Below are positions 9,516-33,886 of a stretch of DNA of 64,000 nucleotides, one piece after another. How positions within the stretch are numbered: position 1 is the stretch's first letter; the number at the start of each line of letters is the position of its first letter. Below the pieces are notes generated by a model, which ran no database searches, was not told the origin of the DNA, and saw nothing but the letters and a program-made list of their open reading frames with translations. Source of the DNA: Nitrospinaceae bacterium (lineage in GTDB: Bacteria; Nitrospinota; Nitrospinia; Nitrospinales; Nitrospinaceae); contig OZ245011.1 of assembly GCA_965223665.1 (NCBI GenBank), positions 3,648,001 through 3,712,000 of the forward strand, in the 5' to 3' direction. Position numbers and translations under genes: made by a program.

Positions 9516-10373
9516 TTATCCGAGTAATGAAAGCACTGATTGTGGGATTAAGTTAGCTTGTCCCGCCATAGAAACCGAAGATTCTACCAAGATTTGGTTT
9601 CGGGTTAATAAGGCAACTTCCTCAGCAATGTCCGCGTCACGAATCGCTGATTCTGCAGCCTGTAAGTTCTCAACTGAAATTCCCAAGTTGGAAACGGTCC
9701 GTACCAATCGGTTCTGTGCGGCACCGATTTTACCTCGACCTTGAGTTACAACTGATATTGCGGAGTTGATGGAATCCAACGCCGTTAATGCAGCTGCAGC
9801 AGAGGTAACTGAAAGTGTATCAATGCCTAGAGAAGTTTGGGTGATTGATTGAAGATTCACCTCGGTATTGAGATTAATACGGCTATTTGCAGTACTATCG
9901 ATACCGACTTGAATCAAAATATGGTTAGCTGCAGATGCAGTGGATGCTAAAGATCCATCAACCAATTTTTGACCATTAAACTCGGTAGTGTTTGCAATAC
10001 GATCGATTTCATTTCTCAAAGCTGAGAATTCTAATTGAATCGTTTGACGTTCAGTAGAACCAACGGTACCTGTTGCTGCTTGAGAAGCTAGTTCTCTTAA
10101 ACGAATAAGAATACCTGCTTGCTCGTTAAGTGCTCCTTCAGTAACATTGATTAATGAAATACCGTCATTTGCGTTTCGAACCGCTTGACGAAGTGCTCGA
10201 ATGTCTGACCGCAAACCTTCAGAAATTGCCAAGCCTGCTGCATCATCTGCACCGCGGTTAATTCTGATACCAGAAGCAATCCGTTCAACGGATTTTGCTA
10301 GCCGGTCATTGTTAATGCCCAATAGTCTTTGAGCATTAAGCGAGGGAATGTTATTAAAGATTCGAACTGGCAT
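9516..10373 (-). CDS. fliC: Flagellin (285 aa)
   Basis: Flagellin N- and C-terminal motifs. Confidence 0.95.
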   Translation of the reverse strand: MPVRIFNNIPSLNAQRLLGINNDRLAKSVERIASGIRINRGADDAAGLAISEGLRSDIRALRQAVRNANDGISLINVTEGALNEQAGILIRLRELASQAATGTVGSTERQTIQLEFSALRNEIDRIANTTEFNGQKLVDGSLASTASAANHILIQVGIDSTANSRINLNTEVNLQSITQTSLGIDTLSVTSAAAALTALDSINSAISVVTQGRGKIGAAQNRLVRTVSNLGISVENLQAAESAIRDADIAEEVALLTRNQILVESSVSMAGQANLIPQSVLSLLG

Positions 10374-10560
10374 TTCCTATCCTCCTTGATGATTTGTGTT
10401 TGCAAACTGGCCTCCCAACCGTTGTCGCAAACTACAGGATTAAAATACTCCGGGTTAGAGCCTCCTATTGCTCGTTCCGGTAAAGATGTTTTCTCAAACA
10501 CCTCCCAAATAAAAATTATTAATGTAAAAAATTCTTTGGATAAACCAAAGGCCACTCTGC

Positions 10561-10587
10561 TTATCGGAGGACTACTTTTGAACTTTA
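10561..10587 (-). promoter_or_regulatory. Sigma28 (FliA) promoter
   Basis: TAAA(GTTC)-N15-TCCGATAA. Confidence 0.8.
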
Positions 10588-10922
10588 GGGGGAATAATTT
10601 AAATTAAGATATCGTGAGGGGACTTGTCTATTTAGTACCTCAAAAACAATCCATTTTAGTTTCGAATAATTTTGAGGTTAAATTTTAAAAAGTTGGTGCA
10701 AATAGGTTTACTCTTTCTTTATTTACACTATTAATGAAAAAGTTTTGTGAAAAAATATAGTAAGGTTGGGAGAGATTAATATTAAGACCTTTCACCACTT
10801 TGGGATTTCCAATTAATCTTTAAAATTAAATGGAAATTCCCAAAGCTAAGGACTTTAAAAAGACCTTAAAATGAAAGGCGGTGTTCAATCCCCAAAAATC
10901 TTGGGAACAAGCTATTCCAAGC

Positions 10923-11771
10923 TTAACCTAACAATTGTAATACGGACTGCGGGATCAAATTAGATTGGCCCACTGCTGCAGTTGCCGTTTCTACTAAAAT
11001 TTGGTTTCTTGTTAACAGTGCAACTTCTTCAGCTATATCAGCATCACGAATAGCTGATTCAGCGGCTTGTAAGTTTTCAACAGATACTCCAAGACTTGAA
11101 ATTGACCGTACCAATCTATTTTGAACCGCCCCAATTTTACCTCGTCCTTGGGTCACCACAGCAATTGCTGAGTTTATAGAATCCAAAGCAGTTAAGGCTG
11201 CTGCTGCAGAGGTAACGGAAAGTGCATCAATTCCTAAGGAAGTTTGGGTGATAGATTGAAGATTAACTTCAGTATTTAAATTAATTCTACTATTTGCAGA
11301 GCTGTCGATTCCAATTTGAATTGAAATTTGAGTTCCAGAAGATGCTAGAGATCCGTCTACTAATTTCTGGCCATTAAATTCAGTGGTAGCTGCAATACGA
11401 TCAATCTCGTTTCTGAGTGCGGAGAACTCTAATTGAATTGTTTGTCGTTCGGTTGAACCAACAGTACCTGTTGCTGCTTGAGAGGCTAACTCACGAAGAC
11501 GAATAAGGATACCAGATTGTTCATTAAGAGCACCTTCCGCAACATTGATTAAGGAAATTCCATCGTTTCCATTTCGGATTCCCTGTCTGAGAGCGCGGAT
11601 GTCGGACCGTAGTCCTTCAGAGATTGCCAAACCTGCGGCATCATCTGCTCCACGGTTAATTCTAATACCCGAAGCAATCCGTTCCACGGATTGTGCAAGT
11701 CTGTCATTGTTGATGCCTAAAATTCTTTGGGAATTTAATGAGGCAATATTATTAAAGATTCGAACTGCCAT
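10923..11771 (-). CDS. fliC: Flagellin (282 aa)
   Basis: Flagellin N- and C-terminal motifs. Confidence 0.95.
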   Translation of the reverse strand: MAVRIFNNIASLNSQRILGINNDRLAQSVERIASGIRINRGADDAAGLAISEGLRSDIRALRQGIRNGNDGISLINVAEGALNEQSGILIRLRELASQAATGTVGSTERQTIQLEFSALRNEIDRIAATTEFNGQKLVDGSLASSGTQISIQIGIDSSANSRINLNTEVNLQSITQTSLGIDALSVTSAAAALTALDSINSAIAVVTQGRGKIGAVQNRLVRSISSLGVSVENLQAAESAIRDADIAEEVALLTRNQILVETATAAVGQSNLIPQSVLQLLG

Positions 11772-11971
11772 TTCCTAATCCTCCACCAAGAGTTGGAATG
11801 TTTTTAATATTATTTAATCGGTTATGATTCCGTTTTGAGCTTTATTTTAGAAACGTCTTTATTACCTCCTTGTGGTTTATTTAGATAATCCTTTTCTAAA
11901 TTTGTTTAGACATTCTCATTTCTGCGTTCAACAATTGAAATGTCTTTTGGGTATACATTGGCTCATGTTCT

Positions 11972-21751: not shown

Positions 21752-22387
21752 TTATAAATCTGGTTGAGGAGTCATACGTAAATAGGGCTTGACCACTTTA
21801 TGCCCTTTAGGGAATTTCGCTGGAATATCCTCAGTTTTTATTGCAGGGACTACTACACAATCCTCTCCATGTTTCCAATCTGCAGGTGTCGCTACACTAT
21901 AATTAGCTGTCAATTGTAATGAATCGAGGACACGAAGTAATTCATTAAAATTTCTACCTGTAGAGGCAGGGTAGGTTAGGGTGAGTTTTACTTTTTTATC
22001 AGGTCCAATAATGAAAACGGATCGAACTGTTAAATTATCCAAAGCGTTGGGATGAATCATATCGTAAGTAGTAGCAATTTTTTTTTCAGGATCAGCAATG
22101 ATCGGGTAATTAACTTTGCAATTTTGTGTTTCATTTATATCGTTGATCCACCCTTTGTGATCATCAACTGAATCCACACTTAAGGCGATTACCTTGCAAT
22201 TCCGTTTAGAGAATTCTTCTTTTAGGTTGGCAACTCTGCCAAGTTCAGTCGTGCATACCGGGGTATAATCTTTAGGATGTGAAAAAAAGATTCCCCAGCC
22301 ATCGCCCAGCCATTCATGAAAATCTATAGTTCCTTCTGTGGTTTCGGCGGTAAAATTCGGTGCAGTATCTCCAAGTCTTATGGCCAT
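21752..22387 (-). CDS. 1-Cys peroxiredoxin (Prx6 family)
   Basis: HPKDYTPVCTTE, YPASTGRNF. Confidence 0.95.
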   Translation of the reverse strand: MAIRLGDTAPNFTAETTEGTIDFHEWLGDGWGIFFSHPKDYTPVCTTELGRVANLKEEFSKRNCKVIALSVDSVDDHKGWINDINETQNCKVNYPIIADPEKKIATTYDMIHPNALDNLTVRSVFIIGPDKKVKLTLTYPASTGRNFNELLRVLDSLQLTANYSVATPADWKHGEDCVVVPAIKTEDIPAKFPKGHKVVKPYLRMTPQPDL

Positions 22388-22609: not shown

Positions 22610-22957
22610 ATGGGTAATGAAGCAAATTTTGATGAGCAATTCGACTACACACTGACTTTATTAAAGAAAATCTGGGTTGTATTGGTGATTGGGCTGTATG
22701 CGCTCTGTTTTTATAATGAATATAAATTTCCGGGAGCACACATTCAACCCTTAAAAGGTGAAGAGATATTGTGGAAAATGGAGCGGGTCTTATATTTTGG
22801 GTTGCTCGGAGTTGGGGTGCTTACAGATATTGTTCAAATGCGATTAGACAGAAATAAAGCATTTCTTTTTTTATTCGCTTCGCTAATTTTGGGAGGGCTT
22901 TCCACTTCGATAGGGGCTCTGCATTTTAAATCCGTACAATTTTTATTTGGAAATTAA
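22610..22957 (+). CDS. Hypothetical membrane protein (3 TM)
   Basis: 115-aa ORF with three hydrophobic segments. Confidence 0.65.
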   Translation: MGNEANFDEQFDYTLTLLKKIWVVLVIGLYALCFYNEYKFPGAHIQPLKGEEILWKMERVLYFGLLGVGVLTDIVQMRLDRNKAFLFLFASLILGGLSTSIGALHFKSVQFLFGN

Positions 22958-23046
22958 GAGAGCAAAAGATTTATATAGGAATGCATTCTATATTTAAAGC
23001 GATTTATTTTTGAATTAAAATAATTCACAAAAAAATTTTAGAAGAT

Positions 23047-23119
<73 letters not shown>

Positions 23120-23177
23120 TCTGTTATCTGGAAGGGGGCTGTAGGGGCTGAGATTTTATTAGTTCAAGCTTTGATCT

Positions 23178-24647
23178 TTATGGATTAAAATCCTTAATGA
23201 GATGAATCACACTCGCATCCATCATCTCCATCAATGGTCCAGGATACAAACCAATACCCAATACCAGGAAAGCCAATGGAATCAACGCAGCAAGTTCCAA
23301 ATTCGATAAATCCGGGAGCATTTTTGCGGTTTCTGTTTTAGGCTCCCCTAATGCCACCCTTTGGAGCATCCACAACATATAAGCTGCAGCTAAAACAATA
23401 CCGCCCATAGAGATAAGAACTATTGGAAAATTGACATAGGAAGTTCCTACCAGTACTAAAAACTCACCAATGAAATTGCAGGTACCTGGTAGTCCAAAAG
23501 CAGCGACTGAGAACAAAAAGAAAAATGCAACAAATCTTGGCATGGGTTTATGCAATCCGCCGTAGTCCGAAATAGCTCGACTGTGAGTGCGGTCATATAA
23601 TTGTCCAACAGCAATAAACAAAGCGGCCGTAGTAATTCCATGGTTGAACATTTGCAAGACGGCTCCCTGAATGCCCTGATTATTAAACACAAAAATTCCG
23701 AGTGTGACAAAACCCATGTGAGAAACTGAAGAATATGCCACGAGTTTTTTAAGGTCGGATTGAGCTAAAGCCAGATAACCCCCATATATAATGGCTATGA
23801 CTGATAACCACAAAGTGTATGGTGCGAATTGTGCCGAAGCCTCCGGAAACATTGGCAAACAAAAACGTATAAATCCATAACCTCCCATTTTTAAAAGCAC
23901 ACCAGCCAGAATCACACTGCCAGCAGTCGGAGCTTCCGAGTGTGCGTCAGGGAGCCAAGTATGAAAGGGAACCATTGGCATTTTGATGGCAAAAGCCAGA
24001 AAAAACGCCAGGAACAACCAGAATTGTGTAGTGGAGGAATAAGTTTGTTTGGATAAAACCAATAGATCGTAGGTATGTCCCCCATTTAGATAAATGCCTA
24101 ATATACCCACCAGTAGCAGTAAGCTTCCAGTTAGACTGTACAAAACGAACTTTAGTCCGGCAGCTATACGATTTGGTCCTCCCCATAGAATAATCATAAA
24201 ATACATGGGAATCATTGTTACTTCCCACAACATGAAAAACAGGAATAGATCCAGAGCGGTAAAGACCACAATCATGGCCCCTTCAACTAACAATATTAAC
24301 GAGAGATAGGCTCTTACTCGATTGGTGATTCCCTTCCACGAGCAAAGGACACAAATTGGGCAAAGTAGAGCTGTGAGCATCACTAATAGAATACTGATGC
24401 CATCCACACCAACTGCGTACTGGATATTAAAAGTAGTCATCCATTCCACGCGTTCCACGAACTGCATGTCTTTTAGAGAGGGATCAAAATTCCTCCAAAG
24501 AATTAGCGAAAGGAAAAACACCACCAATGTGATGCACAAGGCAATTCGTCGAATCCATTCTTCATTACGCACGAAAGCCAGAATGACGATTCCTAAAAAA
24601 GGAACGGCAATCATCCCGCTAATCAGATGATCCATTAAAATAGCCAT
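23178..24647 (-). CDS. NuoM-like antiporter-like membrane subunit
   Basis: VGVDGIS, WEVTMIPMYF, KMPMVPFHTWLPDAHSEAPTAGS, AYSSVSHMG, FIGEF. Confidence 0.9.
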   Translation of the reverse strand: MAILMDHLISGMIAVPFLGIVILAFVRNEEWIRRIALCITLVVFFLSLILWRNFDPSLKDMQFVERVEWMTTFNIQYAVGVDGISILLVMLTALLCPICVLCSWKGITNRVRAYLSLILLVEGAMIVVFTALDLFLFFMLWEVTMIPMYFMIILWGGPNRIAAGLKFVLYSLTGSLLLLVGILGIYLNGGHTYDLLVLSKQTYSSTTQFWLFLAFFLAFAIKMPMVPFHTWLPDAHSEAPTAGSVILAGVLLKMGGYGFIRFCLPMFPEASAQFAPYTLWLSVIAIIYGGYLALAQSDLKKLVAYSSVSHMGFVTLGIFVFNNQGIQGAVLQMFNHGITTAALFIAVGQLYDRTHSRAISDYGGLHKPMPRFVAFFFLFSVAAFGLPGTCNFIGEFLVLVGTSYVNFPIVLISMGGIVLAAAYMLWMLQRVALGEPKTETAKMLPDLSNLELAALIPLAFLVLGIGLYPGPLMEMMDASVIHLIKDFNP

Positions 24648-24771
24648 TTTAGTATCCTCCTGCCTACGAAATAAACAATCTCTCGGATTTTTATATTAGC
24701 TCATGAAAAATGAAGTAAGGCAAATTGCAACCAGATTCTTTTATTATAACTGGGGTACAAATCGGAAACGT

Positions 24772-26868
24772 TTAAACCAAAAAATACAATAGACCAGTCA
24801 TTGCCACTAACCAAAATATCATTACTAATAACTGATGTTGGATAGTACGGGATTCCATTTCTCGTAGCATTTGTCCTGCCGCAACGCGTTCTGCTACTTT
24901 CCCAACCCTTTGATCCAACCAGTGAATGTCAATAATTCGCCATAACTTCCCGGCCAAATACACAGTAATGTTGGCCAAAGAATGGATAAAATGATCTATT
25001 ACCCTTATATCCATAAAACGCCACAACCACCTGGCAAAACTCACAGTATAAGTGGCCATAGATCCGATGAAACCATCAATAACTTTTACATCAACATTTC
25101 GCCACAACCAATGTGCGACCCTAATAGAAGGGTTTACAATAAAGGCCTCATAGAATTCATCAAAATACCCTTTATTCCAAAACAAGACATACAATCGACG
25201 GTTTTTTACGTTGGCATGTGAGGCTTGAGGTTTGGTTTGAGAATGTTTTGAGTATGCATAGAACCATCCTGCTACTGCTACGCCGAGAGAAACTACCAGC
25301 CAAAAAGAAAAGTTTTGTTCAACTGGGCCTTTCCCCAAATCAACTCCTGGAATGGTTAAGGCAGGAGCAAGAAAATTGGCAAACCAACTCCAAAAAAATG
25401 TCAATAACCCACCTACCAAAACCGTAACCAGAAAAAGGCCAGATAAAATTGACATATTTAAAAACTGAGGCCTAATTGATCGCATTTCCAAACTTTGTTT
25501 TCCTGAAGCAGGTAAGTACGTCTTTGGACCATGAGCAAAAAGCGAGATGATGCTTTTAAAAATATATTGAGAGGCGATAAATACAGTAATCAAGCCAATG
25601 ATTTTGAATCCTATCGAGGCTGACGCAAACCCTGTGATTCCCCATAAATATTCATACGATCCGGAAAAAAGTACTAACGGCGGGAGTAAAGCCAATAAAA
25701 AAGCCCCGCCATATAGGATACCCATGCCCTCATTGGTATGAGGTTCATGATCCTCATGCCCAAGTCCCTGTTCCACCGATCGCAAACTATTACCCGTAGA
25801 CAGAAAAAAGAAAGCTTTGTAGCACCCATGAGCAAGAAGATGAAAAATGGCCACTGCAAAAGCACCCAAACCGCAAGCCATGACCATGAATCCAATTTGA
25901 CTAATGGTGGAATAGGCTAAAGACTTTTTGATATCAGATTGAGGCAAGGAAACTATTCCGGCAAATATAGCGGTTGTAGCCCCAATTATGGCAATGAACG
26001 TCATGGCGGATGGAGAAAGGATAATCAATGGGCTCAATCGTACCAACAAAAAAGGACCTGCATTTACCATAGTAGCGGCATGAATAAGGGCTGAAACTGG
26101 AGTCGGAGCTTCCATCGCCCCCGGCAACCATACATGAAACGGTATTTGTGCTGACTTTCCCATAGCTCCCATAAAGAGGAAAAAAGGAATAAGAGTTAAG
26201 GGATATATATGAAATTCCAAGCCCATCCATCCTAAGATATTGATAGTATGGTTTTGCATGCTTTCAGCCTGGCCAAGAATAGTCGGAATATCCAGAGTTC
26301 CAAAGGTAAAGAAGGTTAAAATAATGCCAAAACTTAATCCGACATCCGCGATTGAGTTTACGAGAAAAGCTTTGGTGGCTGCGCGGCCAGCGGAAGGTCT
26401 TTCCGCTGCGTGAGAAATCAAAAGATAGGAACAGATTCCCATGACTTCCCAACTTATCAATAGCATCAAAAGGTTGCCACTCATAACTAACAAAATCATA
26501 GAAAAAGTAAACAACGCAATGACAGCAAAAAAACGATTATAGGTTGACTCTCCAATCATATAACGAGAAGAATATACATGCACAACCCCACTTACTCCGG
26601 TGACTAAGAGTAAAAGCAAAACAGTCAGTTGATCAACAAACAGAGTTAGATCAATGGTCAGCGAACCAGAGTGAAACAGTCGGTAAAGGGAAATGGTAAA
26701 CGATCCATTTTTTAACACTTCAATGAATGCGGCAACAGATAACGCAAAGGAAATTCCAATGGCAGGAATTCCAATACGGTGACCGTTCTCCCCCCAACGA
26801 CGTCCCCCAAGTAAAAGAATGAGAGAAGCTAGAAAAGGAAGCAAAGGAATGAGGACGTAAATTGCCAT
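24772..26868 (-). CDS. NuoL/MrpA/DabB-like antiporter-like subunit with extended lateral helix
   Basis: SWEVMG, KSAQIPFHVWLPGAMEAPTPVSALIHAATMV, AYSTISQIG, HLLAHGCYKA; C-terminal 3x27-aa repeat. Confidence 0.9.
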   Translation of the reverse strand: MAIYVLIPLLPFLASLILLLGGRRWGENGHRIGIPAIGISFALSVAAFIEVLKNGSFTISLYRLFHSGSLTIDLTLFVDQLTVLLLLLVTGVSGVVHVYSSRYMIGESTYNRFFAVIALFTFSMILLVMSGNLLMLLISWEVMGICSYLLISHAAERPSAGRAATKAFLVNSIADVGLSFGIILTFFTFGTLDIPTILGQAESMQNHTINILGWMGLEFHIYPLTLIPFFLFMGAMGKSAQIPFHVWLPGAMEAPTPVSALIHAATMVNAGPFLLVRLSPLIILSPSAMTFIAIIGATTAIFAGIVSLPQSDIKKSLAYSTISQIGFMVMACGLGAFAVAIFHLLAHGCYKAFFFLSTGNSLRSVEQGLGHEDHEPHTNEGMGILYGGAFLLALLPPLVLFSGSYEYLWGITGFASASIGFKIIGLITVFIASQYIFKSIISLFAHGPKTYLPASGKQSLEMRSIRPQFLNMSILSGLFLVTVLVGGLLTFFWSWFANFLAPALTIPGVDLGKGPVEQNFSFWLVVSLGVAVAGWFYAYSKHSQTKPQASHANVKNRRLYVLFWNKGYFDEFYEAFIVNPSIRVAHWLWRNVDVKVIDGFIGSMATYTVSFARWLWRFMDIRVIDHFIHSLANITVYLAGKLWRIIDIHWLDQRVGKVAERVAAGQMLREMESRTIQHQLLVMIFWLVAMTGLLYFLV
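24880..25122 (-). repeat. Three tandem 81-nt (27-aa) repeats in the NuoL-like C-terminal amphipathic helix
   Basis: The Trp codon of LWR falls at 25102, 25021 and 24940, a period of exactly 81 nt. Confidence 0.9.
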
Positions 26869-26876
26869 AATTTCCC

Positions 26877-28346
26877 TTAAAGACCTGGTGGTAGAGCTTG
26901 ATTTAACAACATTTGAACAATGGGAGCACTGAATATTCCAAGAATCATAATTGCGGCGGACGTGATTCCAAGAGTCAGTTTAAATGACAGTGGAATTGCA
27001 CCAAATGTTCCGTCGGATGGAGTTGATGATTGACGGAAAATCCGCTCGAAGAGTTTGACGAAATAGGCAAGCGTCAAGAGCGTAGAAAGTAGTACTGCAG
27101 CGACTGAAAAATAATTGCTTTCATCCAACGCTCCAAGAATAATGTACCATTTGCCAAAAAAACCTCCGGTCGGAGGTAGGCCAATCATGCCCAAGGCCAT
27201 AACCACTAAAGACCCGGTAAGCCAGGGAGCTTGTTTTCCTACACGCCCTATATCATCAATAGTTCTGACCCCATAATGGCAAATTGCTACACCGGCTAAA
27301 AAAAACAGGGCAGCCTGCATAACAGCATCGTTCAATAAATAAAATACTCCTCCGGCAAATCCCGTTGGGTTTCCTTGACTGATGCCAATCAGAATGATGC
27401 CAATGTGCGAAATTCCTCCATAAGAAAACATCATTTTTATATCCCGCTGGGCCAAGGCCAGGCTTGCACCTATGACGGCAGCTAAGGCACCAACAACTTC
27501 CATCAGAACCAAAATAGGAATATTGTAAATAACAATCGATGCATTTAAGACCCAATAGATTATTCTGACCCACGCTAGAAGTGCTACCTTGGTGAGGAGA
27601 GGAGCCAAAATAGGTGAAACAGAATCAGGAGCATAAGTGTAGGCATCCGGCATCCAAGCATGAAACGGTACCAGGGCCATCTTGATTCCCAGGCCAATAA
27701 ACATAAACAGCAGTCCCCCCACTAAAGCTTTTGAACCTAATAATAAGGGAAGTCTTTCGGCTATATCCGCCATATTCAGAGTGCCGCTCACCGCATAAAG
27801 ATAACTAACCCCTAGAAGATAAAGGGAAGCGCCGAGTGTTCCTAAGATAAGATAACGGAATGCGGCAAACAGAGCTCTTCCGCCTGCGACACCGACAAGT
27901 GCGTAACTTGAGATAGCCGCAACTTCTAAAAATACGAATAGATTGAATAGATCCCTGGCGAAAACAATGCCGGTTAAAGCTGATATCAATAGCAAGATCA
28001 ACGTATAATAATGAACGATCCGGCCACCCAGAGCCTTGGGTGAAGTTGTTCCTGTAAATATCACACCCAGCAAACCCAAAGCACTCAGCAATACTAACAT
28101 GACACTCGCTAATCCATCAGCCACCCATTCAATGCCGAGGGGTACTGTCCAACCGCTAAAAACATAACGCACCTCTCCATGATTAGTGACGTTGTAAAGA
28201 TTCCAAATTGAGACAAGAACCATAACTGCTAGAATTACCAAAGAAATTCTGTGGCTCCAGTGACGATGTTTTAAACAAACCACTGGCATAGAAATGGCGG
28301 CGAATAATGGAAGTAAAAATAAGATTGCAGGAAGTTGGTGATTCAT
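26877..28346 (-). CDS. mrpD: Mrp antiporter subunit D-like
   Basis: FSGWTVPLGIE, DLFNLFVFLEV, GTLNMAD, PFHAWMPDAY, GLPPTGGFFGKW. Confidence 0.9.
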   Translation of the reverse strand: MNHQLPAILFLLPLFAAISMPVVCLKHRHWSHRISLVILAVMVLVSIWNLYNVTNHGEVRYVFSGWTVPLGIEWVADGLASVMLVLLSALGLLGVIFTGTTSPKALGGRIVHYYTLILLLISALTGIVFARDLFNLFVFLEVAAISSYALVGVAGGRALFAAFRYLILGTLGASLYLLGVSYLYAVSGTLNMADIAERLPLLLGSKALVGGLLFMFIGLGIKMALVPFHAWMPDAYTYAPDSVSPILAPLLTKVALLAWVRIIYWVLNASIVIYNIPILVLMEVVGALAAVIGASLALAQRDIKMMFSYGGISHIGIILIGISQGNPTGFAGGVFYLLNDAVMQAALFFLAGVAICHYGVRTIDDIGRVGKQAPWLTGSLVVMALGMIGLPPTGGFFGKWYIILGALDESNYFSVAAVLLSTLLTLAYFVKLFERIFRQSSTPSDGTFGAIPLSFKLTLGITSAAIMILGIFSAPIVQMLLNQALPPGL

Positions 28347-28720
28347 TCTAATTTTTCAAGAATATTTTGTTCGTCAAGGCTTCCATATTTTCGATAGATA
28401 GCTGCGCACAGGGCTAATCCTACGCCCGTGGTCGCCACGCCGACCACAATAGCAGTCAGCGTCAAGACATGAGGTAATGGATTTGCGTAAGTGGCCGCTT
28501 GCACAGGCTCCGAGGTGGACAAAAGTACAGGAACGGTTGCGCCCTTCTTCGCACTGATAGATACTAGAAAAAAAATCACGCTGGTTTGCACTAAATACAA
28601 CCCGATAAGTTTCTTTACAAGATTGTATCTTGTAACCATTATATAAAATCCCCATAGAAAAAGGATAACGAACGTCAAAAAATTAGGTCGCTGAAGAACG
28701 GCCAAAAATGCATCAACCAT
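28343..28720 (-). CDS. mrpC: Mrp subunit C-like
   Basis: NLVKKLIGL, NPLPHVLTLTAIVVG; probable start MVDAF at 28720. Confidence 0.9.
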   Translation of the reverse strand: MVDAFLAVLQRPNFLTFVILFLWGFYIMVTRYNLVKKLIGLYLVQTSVIFFLVSISAKKGATVPVLLSTSEPVQAATYANPLPHVLTLTAIVVGVATTGVGLALCAAIYRKYGSLDEQNILEKLE

Positions 28721-29165
28721 TAATTGAATCCTCAATAATTTCTTCGGCAGATAAGCTGAATACAATAGAAACGGCTGTTACCGCAACGTCTATTGCCACG
28801 CCGACTTGTGTGAGCACAATTCCCAATGATCTTCGAGAAGCAGTTTCAAGGCCTGGGATTTCTAAATTTGCATAATTGAGAAATTCTCCACCACCGATCA
28901 TACATAAGCCTCCCACACCTGCGTAAATCAACATTCCAACTCCATCTCCATGTAAAACACTTTTAGCTATTTGACCCCTGGAGCCATCATGACCAAATAT
29001 CAAAACCGATAAAATCATTCCTGTGCCCAAAATCACCCCACCCACAAATCCACCTCCTGGTCCGAATTGACCGAAAAACAATACATAGATTCCAAAAATT
29101 TGGACCACAGGAATCAGAAAGCGGCCTAGAGTTTGAACAATAATGCTATCGTGTTGGCGTATCAT
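28713..29165 (-). CDS. mrpB: Mrp subunit B (MnhB domain)
   Basis: GQFGPGGGFVGG; probable start MIRQH at 29165, coupled to the upstream stop. Confidence 0.88.
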   Translation of the reverse strand: MIRQHDSIIVQTLGRFLIPVVQIFGIYVLFFGQFGPGGGFVGGVILGTGMILSVLIFGHDGSRGQIAKSVLHGDGVGMLIYAGVGGLCMIGGGEFLNYANLEIPGLETASRRSLGIVLTQVGVAIDVAVTAVSIVFSLSAEEIIEDSING

Positions 29166-29683
29166 TATGTTTGCCTCCTGAGAAGTAGAGCGCAAGCAAT
29201 ACCCGCTGCAAAAATCACCACAGTTTCGATCATCGTATCAAGTGATCGATAGTCCATCAGTACTGAAGTCACAACATTCGGAGTGTGAGTATCCTGATAA
29301 CTTTGTTCGAGATAGGTAGGTGAAATATGAACACTCGCTGGAGAATTCGGGTCCCCATAACCTGGAAGATCATTTGCGGCATAGAGTAATAGAAGCCCCA
29401 AAAGAGGAAAAACAATTAAGGTTGTTAAAGAAGGCGGAGGGCGCCGGAGTCGAGTGTCTTTGGGAGCAGTTCCAAATAGAGTCAATAGAAATAGAACGGT
29501 AGCTAATCCCGCTCCAACAACGGCTTCTACGAAGGCGACATCTACAGCTCCCAGCCATCCCCAAACCAGCGCGAGGAAAAAGCTGTAAGAACCCAATAGC
29601 AGAATGGCACTCATTAAATCCTTAACGAGGATGGCACCAGCGGCAGTAGCTAAAAGAAGTAGGAGTAAAGGAATTTCTATCAT
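29165..29683 (-). CDS. DUF4040 plus MrpB N-terminal (MbhD/E-like) subunit
   Basis: AVDVAFVEAVVGAG; PNVVTSVLMDYRSLDTMIE. Confidence 0.85.
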   Translation of the reverse strand: MIEIPLLLLLLATAAGAILVKDLMSAILLLGSYSFFLALVWGWLGAVDVAFVEAVVGAGLATVLFLLTLFGTAPKDTRLRRPPPSLTTLIVFPLLGLLLLYAANDLPGYGDPNSPASVHISPTYLEQSYQDTHTPNVVTSVLMDYRSLDTMIETVVIFAAGIACALLLRRQT

Positions 29684-29979
29684 GAGGATTCCCTTCGCCA
29701 GGGTTTTAAACCAGATCGGAGGGCTGCGCGCACCGTTGCATGTGCAATGCCAGGATTTAAAATATACAACAATACCAACACTACCAGAATTTTTAGCATA
29801 TTTTTTCCCAGTCCCTCATGCAAAGCAATTCCGATTAACATCAAAAAGGCCCCAATAGAATCTGTTAATGATACGGCGTGGGAGCGACTAAACACATCAG
29901 GTAATCGAATCACACCGATCGCCGCAACAATAAGAAAAAATAAACCTGCAATGATAAAAATAATGGAAAGTATATCCAT
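29680..29979 (-). CDS. mrpG: Mrp subunit G
   Basis: GVIRLPDVFSRSHA; NPGIAHA. Confidence 0.9.
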   Translation of the reverse strand: MDILSIIFIIAGLFFLIVAAIGVIRLPDVFSRSHAVSLTDSIGAFLMLIGIALHEGLGKNMLKILVVLVLLYILNPGIAHATVRAALRSGLKPWRRESS

Positions 29980-29980
29980 G

Positions 29981-30247
29981 CTATGGAAGCCCCTTTTCTT
30001 CCAAATATTTTGCCACGGCCAGCGCTCCTACTAAATTTAACAGAGCATACCCGGTGGAGATATCAATAAACATATCGACTCGATCAAAATAAATACCAAT
30101 AACAATAAGCAGAATAATTGCTTTTGTGGAAATGCCATTGAGACCCAACACACGGTCAAAAATTGTGGGTCCCCGCAGGACACGATAAAGATAGGCGCCA
30201 ATTAGAATAGCCAGCAATATTATTACGTAAAAGAGAAAAGGCTTCAT
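29981..30247 (-). CDS. mrpF: Mrp subunit F
   Basis: YRVLRGPTIFDRVLG; AKYLE. Confidence 0.9.
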   Translation of the reverse strand: MKPFLFYVIILLAILIGAYLYRVLRGPTIFDRVLGLNGISTKAIILLIVIGIYFDRVDMFIDISTGYALLNLVGALAVAKYLEEKGLP

Positions 30248-30750
30248 AAATCTGGCTCTACGTCCTTAAAAATATTTGCAATTTTATTTTCCATCTGTTT
30301 ACTTTCAACATCTTCACTTAATTCTTTATCCATTGCGTGAACGATAAGGTTATTGCCGTCAACTTCGGCAGTTATCGTTCCTGGAGTTAAGGTAATGGAA
30401 TTACCAAATAGAACCACGGCCCCGTGGTGACGCAATTTTGATTCCACAGAAATCAAATGAGGAGCAATTGGAAGTGAAGGATGCAAAATGAGTTTTGACA
30501 AATGCAGGCCGCTTTGTATGATTTTATAAAAAAGCCAAGGTATATAGAGGAGGATTCTAAACCACAAATTAAATTTAGGAACAAAAGGCGAATGACCAGA
30601 ATTGATCCAGGTCACTAAGAAAGAAAAAATAATTCCCAAAAAAAGGTGAATCCATTCAAAACTGGCAGATAATAAAACCCAAAACAAAAACAGTGAAAGG
30701 GTTTTTAAAAACAGGAATTTTGAGGATATTGGTCGAGATCGAATTGCCAT
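30244..30750 (-). CDS. mrpE: Mrp subunit E
   Basis: NSITLTPGTIT; LIVHAM. Confidence 0.9.
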   Translation of the reverse strand: MAIRSRPISSKFLFLKTLSLFLFWVLLSASFEWIHLFLGIIFSFLVTWINSGHSPFVPKFNLWFRILLYIPWLFYKIIQSGLHLSKLILHPSLPIAPHLISVESKLRHHGAVVLFGNSITLTPGTITAEVDGNNLIVHAMDKELSEDVESKQMENKIANIFKDVEPDL

Positions 30751-30871: not shown

Positions 30872-33800
30872 TTATAAAACATCAACTTTTTCCCAGGTAG
30901 CATTTGGATTGTACCGATGAAACTCAAATTTATGGCAATCCAAAGCTACAAGATTTAACCATTCATTATGAAACAACTGTTGAAGAATCGCATGCTTTTT
31001 AATGATGGATGAGATCACACTTGGTATTTGTTCGATGATGGCTAAAAGTCGCATCGGTTCATGATAGTGTATTTTCCCATTATTAACTGTTTGTAAAGGA
31101 AATCCCATTTGCAAATCACTTTGGGTTCCCAGCATCATCCCAACACCCCCAACGACATTGTGTAACACCTTACTCGCACTGCCAAACTTATAGGGATCGA
31201 CAGCTGAAAAATAATAACCAGTATTTATCCATTCCCCAACAATTAACGGTGCGGTCATAATTTTTTCAAGAATAGCCCCTTCGGGATCAGCAATAGGATC
31301 ATAAGAATGCAAGAAAACTCGACCTCCTAAATCTAACCCTTTAGTCAGTTTTCGTCTTCCAATGAGAAATGCGCCATTGCCCGCTAACCCCCATTCTGGC
31401 CGAGTATTTGCCCAATCGCAACTTCGCTCGTCTACATGAGCAAAGGCCTCCTTTGGAGAAATTTTAGTTGGCGCACTGGGAATGCGTTGACATCTTTCAA
31501 GAGCCTGCTTTGCGCCAGCTTCTTCGAGATCTCTTCTTAAGGCCTGAATATCTTCTTTATGAGAAGCGGGGAATTCCTCTAGATCGTAAAACTCGACTCG
31601 ATCTGTTGTCGTATTATGTTTACCGGGAAGGAACCAGGTGTCGTCGGGAATAGGCAATCCTTTTTCATTGAGAATATGACGAACCTCAGGTTCATTCGCC
31701 ATTGCAGCAAAAACACGAGCATTTGCATCTCCTGGTCTTCCACCGCATGCTCCGCAATCCAAGGCCCCATAATAAGGATTATTATCTGTCTCACTACCGT
31801 GGCCACAGAGGCAAACTAACCGAGCAAAATTTTTAGTAAGCCCCATAGCACGCAAGCCATTTTCGACAAATGTGGCTCGTTCCTCAAGAGAAAAACCCTG
31901 TGAAAGCCCCTCAGGAATCCCTTCGGCATTCACTTCTCCAATTTCCGGGTCTTGTGGATTCGACGGAGTGGAAATTAAGATTTGAGTTGGAACCCTTTGT
32001 GTTAACCAACCCTCAATAGAGGAGGTTATTCCACGAAATGTTTTTTGGAATAAGGTCTTGCCTATTAATCCTAAACTAAAAAAGAACCCCATCACATCAA
32101 TCACCATCATCGACCCGATAGGATGATGTTTTAAATCGTGAAAAATATGGTGTCCCAGTTGGGTCCAGCGAGTACCAGATGAATATTTTTCTAACGCCGT
32201 TCTTTCTCCCAGCCGAGGTGATTCAGTCACCGCATGATTGGGTGTCAATAAAACCGGACATAAAGCGTCTCGAAGATTTCCATCAAAAGCTTGATGGCTA
32301 ATGGGAATTCCAAAAAATCCAGCAAACCCGAAGGTTTCATAAGGGCCTTGGGCTTCAAGATGACGACGAAACGATTCAGAACGTACATCAATACAAAAAA
32401 CCAGTTGAGCATGGGGGCGGATTTCCAATTCAGGTATCGTCCCGTGATGCGCAAAAATATTTTTTAGAATTTTCTGTCGAAAGGAATCTTCATATGCTTC
32501 AATCCATACCTTTCCATGCTGATCAGCAGGAAAGTGATCTAACCATTCTAATAACTTATGGGCATCAGTGATTGAGAGGGCTCCAACTTCTTTTGGAGAT
32601 AACTCAAGAAACTGTGCCAAATGAAATAATCGCCAAGCATGTCGACATTTCACCTTTTTGGTAGGATCTACGGACTGGGTTCCCTGCCCAATGCGTTGGT
32701 GGTATTCTTCGGATCGATTATTCCAATATGCGGTTAGTGCAGAAACAGTTCCGTCAATTCCCCATTCTTGTTTGCATTTGAGGTTGGTTAACTCTACTTC
32801 ATAGAATAAGCGCACTGCAAGATATTGTGTGGTGTCAATTGGGTGTTTTTGCTGTGCATGGTACATAGGGTGTTCCCCTAACCACCTTATGTATCTTGTC
32901 CAGCCGGGTAATAGCGAAAGTTGTCTTGAGAGATAGTCTTTCCATTGTTTCTTAGGAATTTCGAGTTGGTGTAAACTGGAATCAATTGCTTCCTCAGGAA
33001 CGGTAGAGAGACTTCCAACTTTTTGAGAAAAATCTTTTATTCCCAGAAGCTGACCAGAAAAATCTTTCTGTGCGAGGTTTTTCCATACTTGATAGAAACC
33101 TTCTTCCCGGCCAGGCATTTTCCAGCCAGCCAACCCTTCATCAACAAACGCCGTCACCCATTTTATAAGTATATTGTTGATTTGTTCAACCACTTCACCA
33201 TCAGTCAAGTCATCAATCCAATCACTGAGGGTTCTAAGTGACGGTAAGGAAATTGGTAAAGGCGTTTGCGAATCTGAATCTTGATGTGTATGAGATAATC
33301 CATTTGAATCCGTCAAACCTAAGGCGACACATACGCCTTCCCATAAACTTGACAGGTAAGTCTCTTCTGGATATTCCAGATGCTGTTCACATTCCTGGAT
33401 GGTTTTTTCAATAATTGACTTTCGGGAATCTTCAGAAAGATCCCGGCGAAACTGTTTAGTAGCACCTCCACCATTAAATTCCCAATCGAGTAGGGAAAAT
33501 GGCAATTCCTCTATGCCAAAAAGAAGGTGGATCTGCCAAACATCCTTAGCTGAAATTTTTCGGTCTCCAACCTCAATAAAAACTGTTTCATCAAAGTGAG
33601 GTCCCACTCGGGAAAAAGCACGCTCAAAATTTTCCTGGGTAATACGTCCATTTCTGTAAAATTCACGGTACTCATCATTTGTGAGATATCCATTTCCTCC
33701 AAGGAGGGTCTTGCCTTTTCGAACAGCTTGATCAAAAGATAAATATTCCAATCCATGGATCGGATTCTGAGCGACCATTGTCCTCATTGGCCAAAATGGC

Positions 33801-33886
33801 GCAATTGGCTCACTGGCGTCCAATATTAATTGCCGAACTTGATCAAGATCTTCTGGAGAAAGGGACTTCACAAAATTAGTACTCAT
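30872..33886 (-). CDS. dabA: DUF2309 / DabA (MpsB-like) beta-carbonic-anhydrase-like subunit of an inorganic carbon transporter
   Basis: IAPFWPMRTMVAQNP, FCIDVRSESFRRHLE, GHGS, LDCGACGG (predicted Zn ligands C/D/H/C), HNTTTD, RPEWGLAGN, MTAPLIV, HEPMRL. Confidence 0.93.
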   Translation of the reverse strand: MSTNFVKSLSPEDLDQVRQLILDASEPIAPFWPMRTMVAQNPIHGLEYLSFDQAVRKGKTLLGGNGYLTNDEYREFYRNGRITQENFERAFSRVGPHFDETVFIEVGDRKISAKDVWQIHLLFGIEELPFSLLDWEFNGGGATKQFRRDLSEDSRKSIIEKTIQECEQHLEYPEETYLSSLWEGVCVALGLTDSNGLSHTHQDSDSQTPLPISLPSLRTLSDWIDDLTDGEVVEQINNILIKWVTAFVDEGLAGWKMPGREEGFYQVWKNLAQKDFSGQLLGIKDFSQKVGSLSTVPEEAIDSSLHQLEIPKKQWKDYLSRQLSLLPGWTRYIRWLGEHPMYHAQQKHPIDTTQYLAVRLFYEVELTNLKCKQEWGIDGTVSALTAYWNNRSEEYHQRIGQGTQSVDPTKKVKCRHAWRLFHLAQFLELSPKEVGALSITDAHKLLEWLDHFPADQHGKVWIEAYEDSFRQKILKNIFAHHGTIPELEIRPHAQLVFCIDVRSESFRRHLEAQGPYETFGFAGFFGIPISHQAFDGNLRDALCPVLLTPNHAVTESPRLGERTALEKYSSGTRWTQLGHHIFHDLKHHPIGSMMVIDVMGFFFSLGLIGKTLFQKTFRGITSSIEGWLTQRVPTQILISTPSNPQDPEIGEVNAEGIPEGLSQGFSLEERATFVENGLRAMGLTKNFARLVCLCGHGSETDNNPYYGALDCGACGGRPGDANARVFAAMANEPEVRHILNEKGLPIPDDTWFLPGKHNTTTDRVEFYDLEEFPASHKEDIQALRRDLEEAGAKQALERCQRIPSAPTKISPKEAFAHVDERSCDWANTRPEWGLAGNGAFLIGRRKLTKGLDLGGRVFLHSYDPIADPEGAILEKIMTAPLIVGEWINTGYYFSAVDPYKFGSASKVLHNVVGGVGMMLGTQSDLQMGFPLQTVNNGKIHYHEPMRLLAIIEQIPSVISSIIKKHAILQQLFHNEWLNLVALDCHKFEFHRYNPNATWEKVDVL

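Follow-up and report, generated by a model that had tools for sequence, protein, structure and literature searches.

We analysed a 64,000-nucleotide (nt) stretch of the genome of a Nitrospinaceae bacterium (contig OZ245011.1, positions 3,648,001 to 3,712,000; hereafter the window), which carries an operon with genes for a DabA protein, a set of Mrp-type subunits and three antiporter-like subunits. One of these, a NuoL-type protein that we call AntL, has three consecutive copies of a 27-amino-acid (aa) module of the lateral helix in place of one, and among its orthologues the number of modules changes in whole units from one to four while the gene content of the operon stays the same. We read this segment as a tandem triplication of the strap-helix module of NuoL that would act as a passive modular strap in a complex of the Dab-Mrp type, and we put the probability of this reading at about one in two. 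The role of the lateral helix in complex I has long been debated, and it has been regarded as a coupling rod, a clamp or an assembly ruler.

Three copies of the lateral-helix motif in AntL

AntL is encoded by an open reading frame (ORF) of 698 aa at 24772..26868 of the window, on the minus strand, and matches the Pfam families PF00361 and PF00662. In residues 583-663 (25122..24880), the conserved lateral-helix motif of NuoL occurs three times in register, each copy 27 aa long. Unit 1 (residues 583-609; 25042..25122, minus strand) aligns, together with the stretch preceding it, to the canonical motif in P. denitrificans NuoL (residues 612-661) and to that in T. elongatus NdhF. Unit 2 (residues 610-636; 24961..25041, minus strand) is identical to unit 1 at 15/27 aa and 53/81 nt. 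Unit 3 (residues 637-663; 24880..24960, minus strand) is a divergent terminal unit running into the helix end, with 8/27 aa and 33/81 nt identical to unit 1 and 8/27 aa and 38/81 nt identical to unit 2, and its LWR..D motif is kept in orthologues. When the whole protein was compared with itself, the best ungapped 54-aa match had an offset of 27, started at residue 579 and reached a BLOSUM62 score of 117, compared with a mean of 22.9 (standard deviation 7.0, maximum 45) in 100 shuffles, and the repeat signal is confirmed as far above chance. The ORF, the unit coordinates and the self-match score bear out the first-pass annotation of this DNA, which had placed a triplicated 27-aa segment just before the final transmembrane (TM) helix; only its unit 3 had been typed as 26 aa, and the coordinates cover 27. 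The repeat ends about 10 residues ahead of the last TM helix, which AlphaFold2 places at 673-697.

Tandem Repeats Finder, when applied to 23000-26500, returned two short unrelated rows only; with nt identities of just 41-65% between its copies, the repeat is too diverged to be reported at the DNA level. Contigs assembled independently from two public runs cross 24400-25600 with zero differences and no joint within the repeat, which is not independent support, as both runs are probably from the source sample. No variant in unit number was found in the contigs of four runs from one study (probably also the source), and contigs of this kind drop rare variants.

Compared with canonical NuoL, the lateral helix of AntL is lengthened on balance, as had been proposed. 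Tail length was counted to the C-terminus, beginning with the first residue of FWNKGYFDEFY, the conserved motif at which the helix starts. By this measure the tail of AntL is 136 aa, and five canonical NuoL tails span 79-82 aa: those of the two other long NuoL paralogues of the same genome (79 and 82 aa) and those of three NuoL genes from Nitrospirota that precede NuoM and NuoN (82 aa each). The excess in AntL is 54-57 aa, and alignments to PDB chains give an insertion of +54 to +56 aa. The net insertion is two modules, which are copies of the same conserved helix motif. It also distinguishes AntL from an ordinary two-subunit DabB, which had been expected to have no need of such a lengthening. 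The DabB of this type in the same genome (a 567-aa frame) ends about 30 aa past the helix-start motif, with neither a long helix nor a final TM helix, and in this it matches the solved DabB2, described in the accessible part of PMC13144422 as having 15 TM helices and a short axial helix only (residues 499-527).

A related insertion is known from the '2M' NuoL of Nitrospira and its relatives, and the idea that such an insert spans more of the membrane arm stems from the '2M' complex I (PMC9040806, accessible text). In Nitrospirota, three NuoL genes that precede two NuoM genes and NuoN have tails of 110-119 aa, and the known '26-aa insert' turns out to be the helix motif repeated once, in diverged form, at a period of 26. 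The extra modules of AntL are homologous to this insert and lie at the same place in the same helix. The two systems differ in several features. AntL has two extra modules with a period of 27, whereas '2M' NuoL has one with a period of 26, and the copy number varies from 1 to 4 among AntL orthologues. In addition, the second adjoining nuoM of the '2M' type is absent from the operon, which has one NuoM-type and one MrpD-type gene, and the partners of AntL are DabA and Mrp-type proteins rather than the products of a nuo operon.

Module number among orthologues

The AntL gene is the ninth of ten co-oriented genes on the minus strand, in the order DabA, MrpE, MrpF, MrpG, MbhD/E-like, MnhB, MrpC, MrpD-like (AntD), NuoL-like (AntL) and NuoM-like (AntM), and this operon is conserved in Nitrospinota and some Nitrospirota. 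The 120 closest AntL protein clusters are 70-100% identical to it, belong to Nitrospinota by name and fall into length classes near 672, 699 and 722-726 aa. From 43 genome loci fetched, the 36 from Nitrospinota and Nitrospirota were analysed. The complete ten-gene order was found in 27/36, spanning all four length classes; 7/36 end at contig edges and hold subsets of the genes in the same order, and L047 departs from it only because two small, overlapping frames sort differently.

Module number was scored in 150 usable rows, comprising proteins and locus frames, after six rows had been dropped (P0017 and P0111 with no anchor match, L026 truncated, L037 and L042 with a short core, and L027 masked). 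Three modules were found in 106 rows, two in 37 and four in 4; in the remaining 3, the tail is of canonical length and contains no more than one degenerate unit. N. gracilis is an example of a species with four. Counted as distinct C-termini under a strict pattern, there are 87 with three, 34 with two and 2 with four modules, and three modules is the majority state in two phyla. Adjacent modules are spaced by exactly 27 residues in 255/256 cases, while the tail elsewhere varies in length by 1-2 residues, and the same spacing was seen by eye in four-module relatives with 45-57% identity. The core WLWR..D...ID is retained in every module across the orthologues.

Module number is labile in evolution and does not depend on which genes the operon contains. 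On a FastTree phylogeny of the AntL core, from which the repeat was left out, at least 20 changes in module number are needed for the 150 rows, compared with a mean of 40.0 and a minimum of 35 in 200 shuffles of the labels on the same tree, and well-supported sister pairs differ by one unit. Two adjoining copies in the four-module locus L035 are identical at 76/81 nt and therefore point to a recent duplication. Among the loci with the complete operon, 3 have one module, 5 have two, 18 have three and 1 has four, and the estimated lengths of the other nine operon proteins do not follow module number. As a separate observation, a 3.4-kb contig in a record titled Anaerolineales (L026) encodes MnhB, MrpC, AntD and AntL proteins 84-93% identical to those of the window, and it is probably a mis-binned Nitrospinota contig.

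A proposed modular strap and its alternatives

In the strap that we propose, each module would form one amphipathic segment followed by a short break at D-x-(K/R), by which the oily face would be kept on the membrane. When the hydrophobic moment was calculated for an ideal helix, it flipped by ~180° at residues ~593-596, ~620-623 and ~647-650, which are the positions of the conserved D-x-(K/R) of each module, and the helix breaks at 620-622 and 646-649 in the AlphaFold2 model match this position in units 2 and 3. If extended, each module would add ~40 Å, and three modules would give a lateral helix of ~118 residues compared with ~64 for one module. Relative to complex I, the point at which the terminal TM helix inserts could then be displaced along the membrane arm by one, two or three module widths. 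The extra modules would carry this anchor further because one module should suffice for two pump-type neighbours, as in complex I and in the canonical-length loci. We infer that three modules would take the anchor beyond AntM and AntD and over the MbhD/E-like, MnhB and MrpC subunits, in the direction of MrpE/F/G. The assembly as a whole would be a CO2-hydrating complex driven by a cation gradient. Unequal recombination between copies presumably accounts for the whole-unit changes in module number. A comparable function is described for the helix HL of Mrp, which, in the part of PMC7419157 that was accessible, 'braces the complex' and links the TMH7s of the antiporter-like subunits.

The canonical-length loci bear on whether the helix and the Mrp module belong together. 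L030, L031 and L033, all from Nitrospinota, have the same ten-gene order, with AntL at ~9914-11929 in each, and a canonical-length tail without recognisable repeats. Their DabA and AntM are 78-80% and 68-70% identical to those of the window, whereas their seven Mrp-type proteins are only 44-62% identical. Residues 1-552 of AntL, taken in four blocks, are 65-86% identical in L030 and 50-79% in L033, and in the repeat region only 13-14/80 residues are identical. The diverged helix and the diverged Mrp genes thus lie on opposite sides of a conserved AntL core, and a single recombination tract does not explain the pattern because the diverged helix is at the end of AntL far from the Mrp genes. The pattern fits co-adaptation of the helix and its anchor with the Mrp module and is indirect support for a single complex. 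The earlier claim that the operon products form one complex accordingly gains indirect backing of two kinds, from the conserved ten-gene order and from the joint divergence of Mrp proteins and helix in these three loci.

Several points weigh against the strap. First, the protein and locus rows counted above overlap, and the counts are not independent counts of species. Second, the predicted path of the helix rests on an AlphaFold2 monomer model with low confidence over units 2 and 3; in means over 10-residue blocks, the predicted local distance difference test (pLDDT) is ~83-91 for residues 571-610 and 41-67 for 611-670. Third, by a rough module count, a four-module helix may overshoot a single complex. 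Fourth, the exact period is no proof of a geometric constraint, because a mutational mechanism alone gives whole-unit changes. Finally, one of the 36 loci (L021:1-12662, genome G004) has a three-module AntL and an AntM, the latter cut by the contig end, preceded by unrelated genes for a CitMHS transporter, a TPR protein and glycosyltransferases in place of the Mrp genes, and neither a close MrpD-like orthologue nor an Mrp-linked DabA orthologue was found when this genome assembly was searched. If this arrangement is real, the extra helix length needs no Mrp module.

The alternative that survives best, which is possible but which we consider rather unlikely, is that the extra modules are tolerated slack, that is, surface amphipathic helices with no specific partner whose copy number drifts above a minimum strap length. 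The frequent changes among close relatives, including the sister pairs one unit apart, would be expected from such drift, as would the very recent duplication in L035, the two-module helices of ordinary L-M-N operons described below and the locus without upstream Mrp genes. However, every module keeps the conserved motif, and insertions and deletions in the repeat region come as whole units only, although the tail elsewhere tolerates a residue or two. The 27-aa period also persists in the relatives of lowest identity, and three modules is the commonest state in both phyla; these points speak against slack.

The strap reading can also be taken further, in a form that we hold to be doubtful. Here, the strap would be quantised and evolvable: each 27-residue module would shift the anchor TM helix by ~40 Å along a so far undescribed, CO2-hydrating ten-subunit supercomplex of DabA, Mrp and NuoL/NuoM in marine nitrite oxidisers. 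The natural variants with one to four modules would then differ in how much of the arm they clamp or in their stoichiometry, or their straps would extend to a second protomer.

Helix length and pump genes in complex I operons

The first-pass annotation had interpreted the repeat as a molecular ruler for extra subunits. The part of this claim that stands is the net insertion of helix-motif copies. The other part does not, since module number ranges from 1 to 4 at a constant three antiporter-like genes and nine partners; an absence of relation between repeat number and subunit count had been named there as the outcome that would speak against a ruler, and at the level of genes it is the outcome found. 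A strict ruler, with one extra antiporter-like subunit for each extra module, would give a three-module complex two more pump subunits than complex I, and we consider it very unlikely, even though it agrees with some of the data from complex I. In three Nitrospirota genomes, a one-module NuoL is followed by NuoM and NuoN (3/3 operons), and a NuoL with a second module of ~26 aa is followed by two NuoM genes and NuoN (3/3), so that the rule holds in 6/6 operons. The 26-aa insert of '2M' complex I has been proposed to span a fourth pump subunit (PMC9040806, accessible text), and the ~40 Å of a module is roughly the width of one subunit. The operon of the window, however, has only two other antiporter-like genes, as complex I has with one module, and the partner lengths do not follow the module number.

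The same conclusion comes from a wider set of complex I operons. Of 80 metagenome loci related to a three-module representative, 29 extended for 5 kb or more beyond the last antiporter-like gene and could be classified; of the rest, 10 lacked an anchor, and truncation or a short flank excluded the others. A two-module NuoL is followed by just NuoM and NuoN in 16/16 of the classified loci, and a one-module NuoL in 13/13. No extra pump gene was found within the same operon in any of the 16 two-module loci, and a seventeenth locus, L089, which the pattern had mis-anchored, shows by eye two modules followed by NuoM and NuoN. Inserts in NuoL are also reported for complexes without extra subunits, in the accessible text of PMC9040806.

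In 14/16 two-module loci, a second set of antiporter-like genes (NuoN/NuoM-like) lies convergent downstream, with a NuoL-like frame where the fetched stretch extends. Convergent L-M-N sets ~2 kb apart, of which the examined set is the two-module one, were seen in L077, L088, L090, L095, L100, L101, L106, L109, L112, L116, L119, L139 and others, and L099, L141 and L152 give the reverse view, in which the examined set has the one-module NuoL.

One orthologous family with four helix lengths in exact 27-residue steps, in which neighbouring genes and partner sizes stay constant, is hard to reconcile with a helix length set by a fixed subunit count. The natural one- to four-module variants are a ready series for testing what the lateral helix of complex I does. 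Least probable is a strap across protomers that organises oligomers, in which the helix would reach a second copy of the complex, for example at an MrpE-mediated dimer interface, or recruit repeated copies of a subunit; it can draw on the dimerisation of Mrp through MrpE (PMC7419157, accessible part) and on a three- or four-module helix exceeding our rough length estimate for one copy of the arm.

Module number also varies among more distant members of the NuoL family. When 150 distant representatives were classed by tail length alone, no anchor could be recognised in 24, a further 19 were fragments, and the 107 classifiable ones comprised 68 with one module, 23 with two, 6 with three, 4 with four and 6 'other'. 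Among the latter, P0149 (801 aa) and P0213 (786 aa) have tails of ~240 aa past the helix-start motif, and by eye the tail of P0149, and the part of P0213 that was seen, contain several further repeats of a 'W-x-E-K-x-V' type unit.

Family, fold and key residues of AntL

By most measures, AntL is closest to NuoL. The NCBIfam subfamily model TIGR01974 (NDH_I_L) was passed with a score of 468.4 against a cut-off of 407.5, and the NuoL equivalog model NF005141 gave 464.9, under its cut-off of 556. The closest solved chains are NuoL, ND5 and NdhF, with E values from 3.7e-80, followed by DabB2 at 7.4e-39 and MrpA at ~1e-35. The AlphaFold2 model, made with a 143-row alignment, has the NuoL fold (mean pLDDT 77.9, predicted template-modelling score 0.79), and when it was searched with Foldseek, the top 50 matches were NuoL/ND5/NdhF chains with target-normalised template-modelling scores of ~0.62-0.79. 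As in NuoL and ND5, the predicted fold has an antiporter-like core followed by a long lateral helix and a final TM helix. The whole predicted lateral helix region covers residues 553-670 (24859..25212, minus strand), with modelled helices at 553-564, 566-619, 623-645, 650-661 and 666-670, and the final TM helix, the equivalent of TM16, covers residues 673-697 (24778..24852, minus strand).

A marked difference from NuoL is found in TM12 (residues 401-407; 25648..25668, minus strand), where the canonical Lys-Asp motif of NuoL and ND5 is lacking. The consensus in 91 distant NuoL-like proteins is FFSKDEIL, and AntL and 42 orthologues have LFSGSYEYL, that is, 'GSYE' in place of 'SKDE'. The other positions of the proton path are kept, namely the Glu of TM5, the Lys of TM7 and the His/His/Lys of TM11. 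The genome's own DabB likewise lacks the TM12 motif, and in DAB2 the Lys-Asp site is filled by a glutamate from the membrane finger of DabA (PMC13144422, accessible part). AntL is therefore probably the DabA-binding, DabB-equivalent subunit. From the missing motif and the operon context, AntL would also be the subunit that couples cation flow to CO2 hydration.

The ten-gene operon and its relation to known systems

The operon combines a DabA-type vectorial carbonic anhydrase (CA) with a NuoL-type and a NuoM-type subunit and a complete complement of Mrp-type ones; all its genes are on the minus strand, and its ten proteins total about 3,500 residues. DabA, the first gene (1004 aa; 30872..33886), matches Pfam PF10070 with an E value of 5.9e-262 and the solved DabA2 (9rd0_A) with 7.9e-113, and the β-CA-like stretches FCIDVRSE and GHGS...CGAC are conserved. 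It is followed by MrpE (30244-30750; PF01899), MrpF (29981-30247; PF04066) and MrpG (29680-29979; PF03334). The next gene encodes a 172-aa MbhD/MbhE-like protein (29165..29683; PF13244 and PF20501), which scores 166.2 with NCBIfam NF009159 (cut-off 141) and aligns to ~601-790 of the MrpA models; it is, by sequence, the equivalent of the MrpA C-terminal domain, encoded separately. Downstream are an MnhB (MrpB-like) subunit (28713..29195; PF04039), an MrpC/NuoK-like subunit (28343..28765; PF00420) and AntD, of the MrpD type (489 aa; 26877..28346; PF00361), the best NCBIfam matches of which are models of cation/H+ antiporter subunit D, every one under its cut-off. AntM, of the NuoM type and also 489 aa, is the last gene (23178..24647; PF00361 and PF01059) and scores 612.8 with TIGR01972 (NDH_I_M; cut-off 263.8). 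The nuoL-M-N genes of the genome lie elsewhere, from C1:1215601 onward, and AntL is thus outside the nuo operon.

Compared with DabB, AntL shares an operon with a DabA that has β-CA-like motifs, although the two genes are not adjacent, and has in common with it the NuoL-like PF00361 family and the missing TM12 pair. In contrast to DabB, which has ~550 aa, 15 TM helices and a short axial helix in the accessible description of DabB2 (PMC13144422), AntL has 698 aa, a helix region of ~118 residues and a further TM helix; it is nearer to NuoL than to DabB2 by E value, and seven Mrp-type genes lie between dabA and AntL. The genome also has a second, ordinary DAB pair (G000:C1:1522276-1528767; loci L003 and L053-L056), with a 1092-aa DabA frame ~2 kb downstream of the 567-aa DabB frame, and this DabA is 39-54% identical to that of the window.

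Compared with Mrp and MBH, in which MrpA or MbhH/MbhI/MbhD/MbhE provide an antiporter-like core whose lateral helix and anchor helix brace MrpD-type and small subunits (PMC7419157, accessible part), AntL has the same elements. The operon includes every other Mrp subunit family and, beyond these, an extra NuoM-type subunit and DabA. Unlike MrpA, a single polypeptide with a C-terminal DUF4040/MnhB-like domain, AntL has this domain encoded as the separate 172-aa gene, and its scores with the MrpA equivalog models are 171-235 against cut-offs of 937-1117 (e.g. 234.6 against 937).

Cyanobacterial NDH-1MS (NdhF3/NdhD3/CupA) is also conceptually similar, in that a protein that hydrates CO2 sits on NuoL-type and NuoM-type subunits at the tip of a membrane arm like that of complex I. 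However, the operon has no genes for a redox module, its hydrating protein is DabA instead of CupA, and the score of AntL with the NdhF3 model TIGR01960 is too low for membership of that family (151.9 against a cut-off of 588.7).

The operon was not found described in the literature searched or in the main texts of genome papers on Nitrospina and Nitrospinota. Nitrospinota are the main marine nitrite oxidisers and fix a notable share of dark-ocean carbon (PMC10839748, accessible text). Downstream of the operon, the window contains a gene for a 1-Cys peroxiredoxin (21752-22387, minus strand), and a hydrophobic ORF of 115 aa with no Pfam match (22610-22957, plus strand) lies between the peroxiredoxin gene and AntM.

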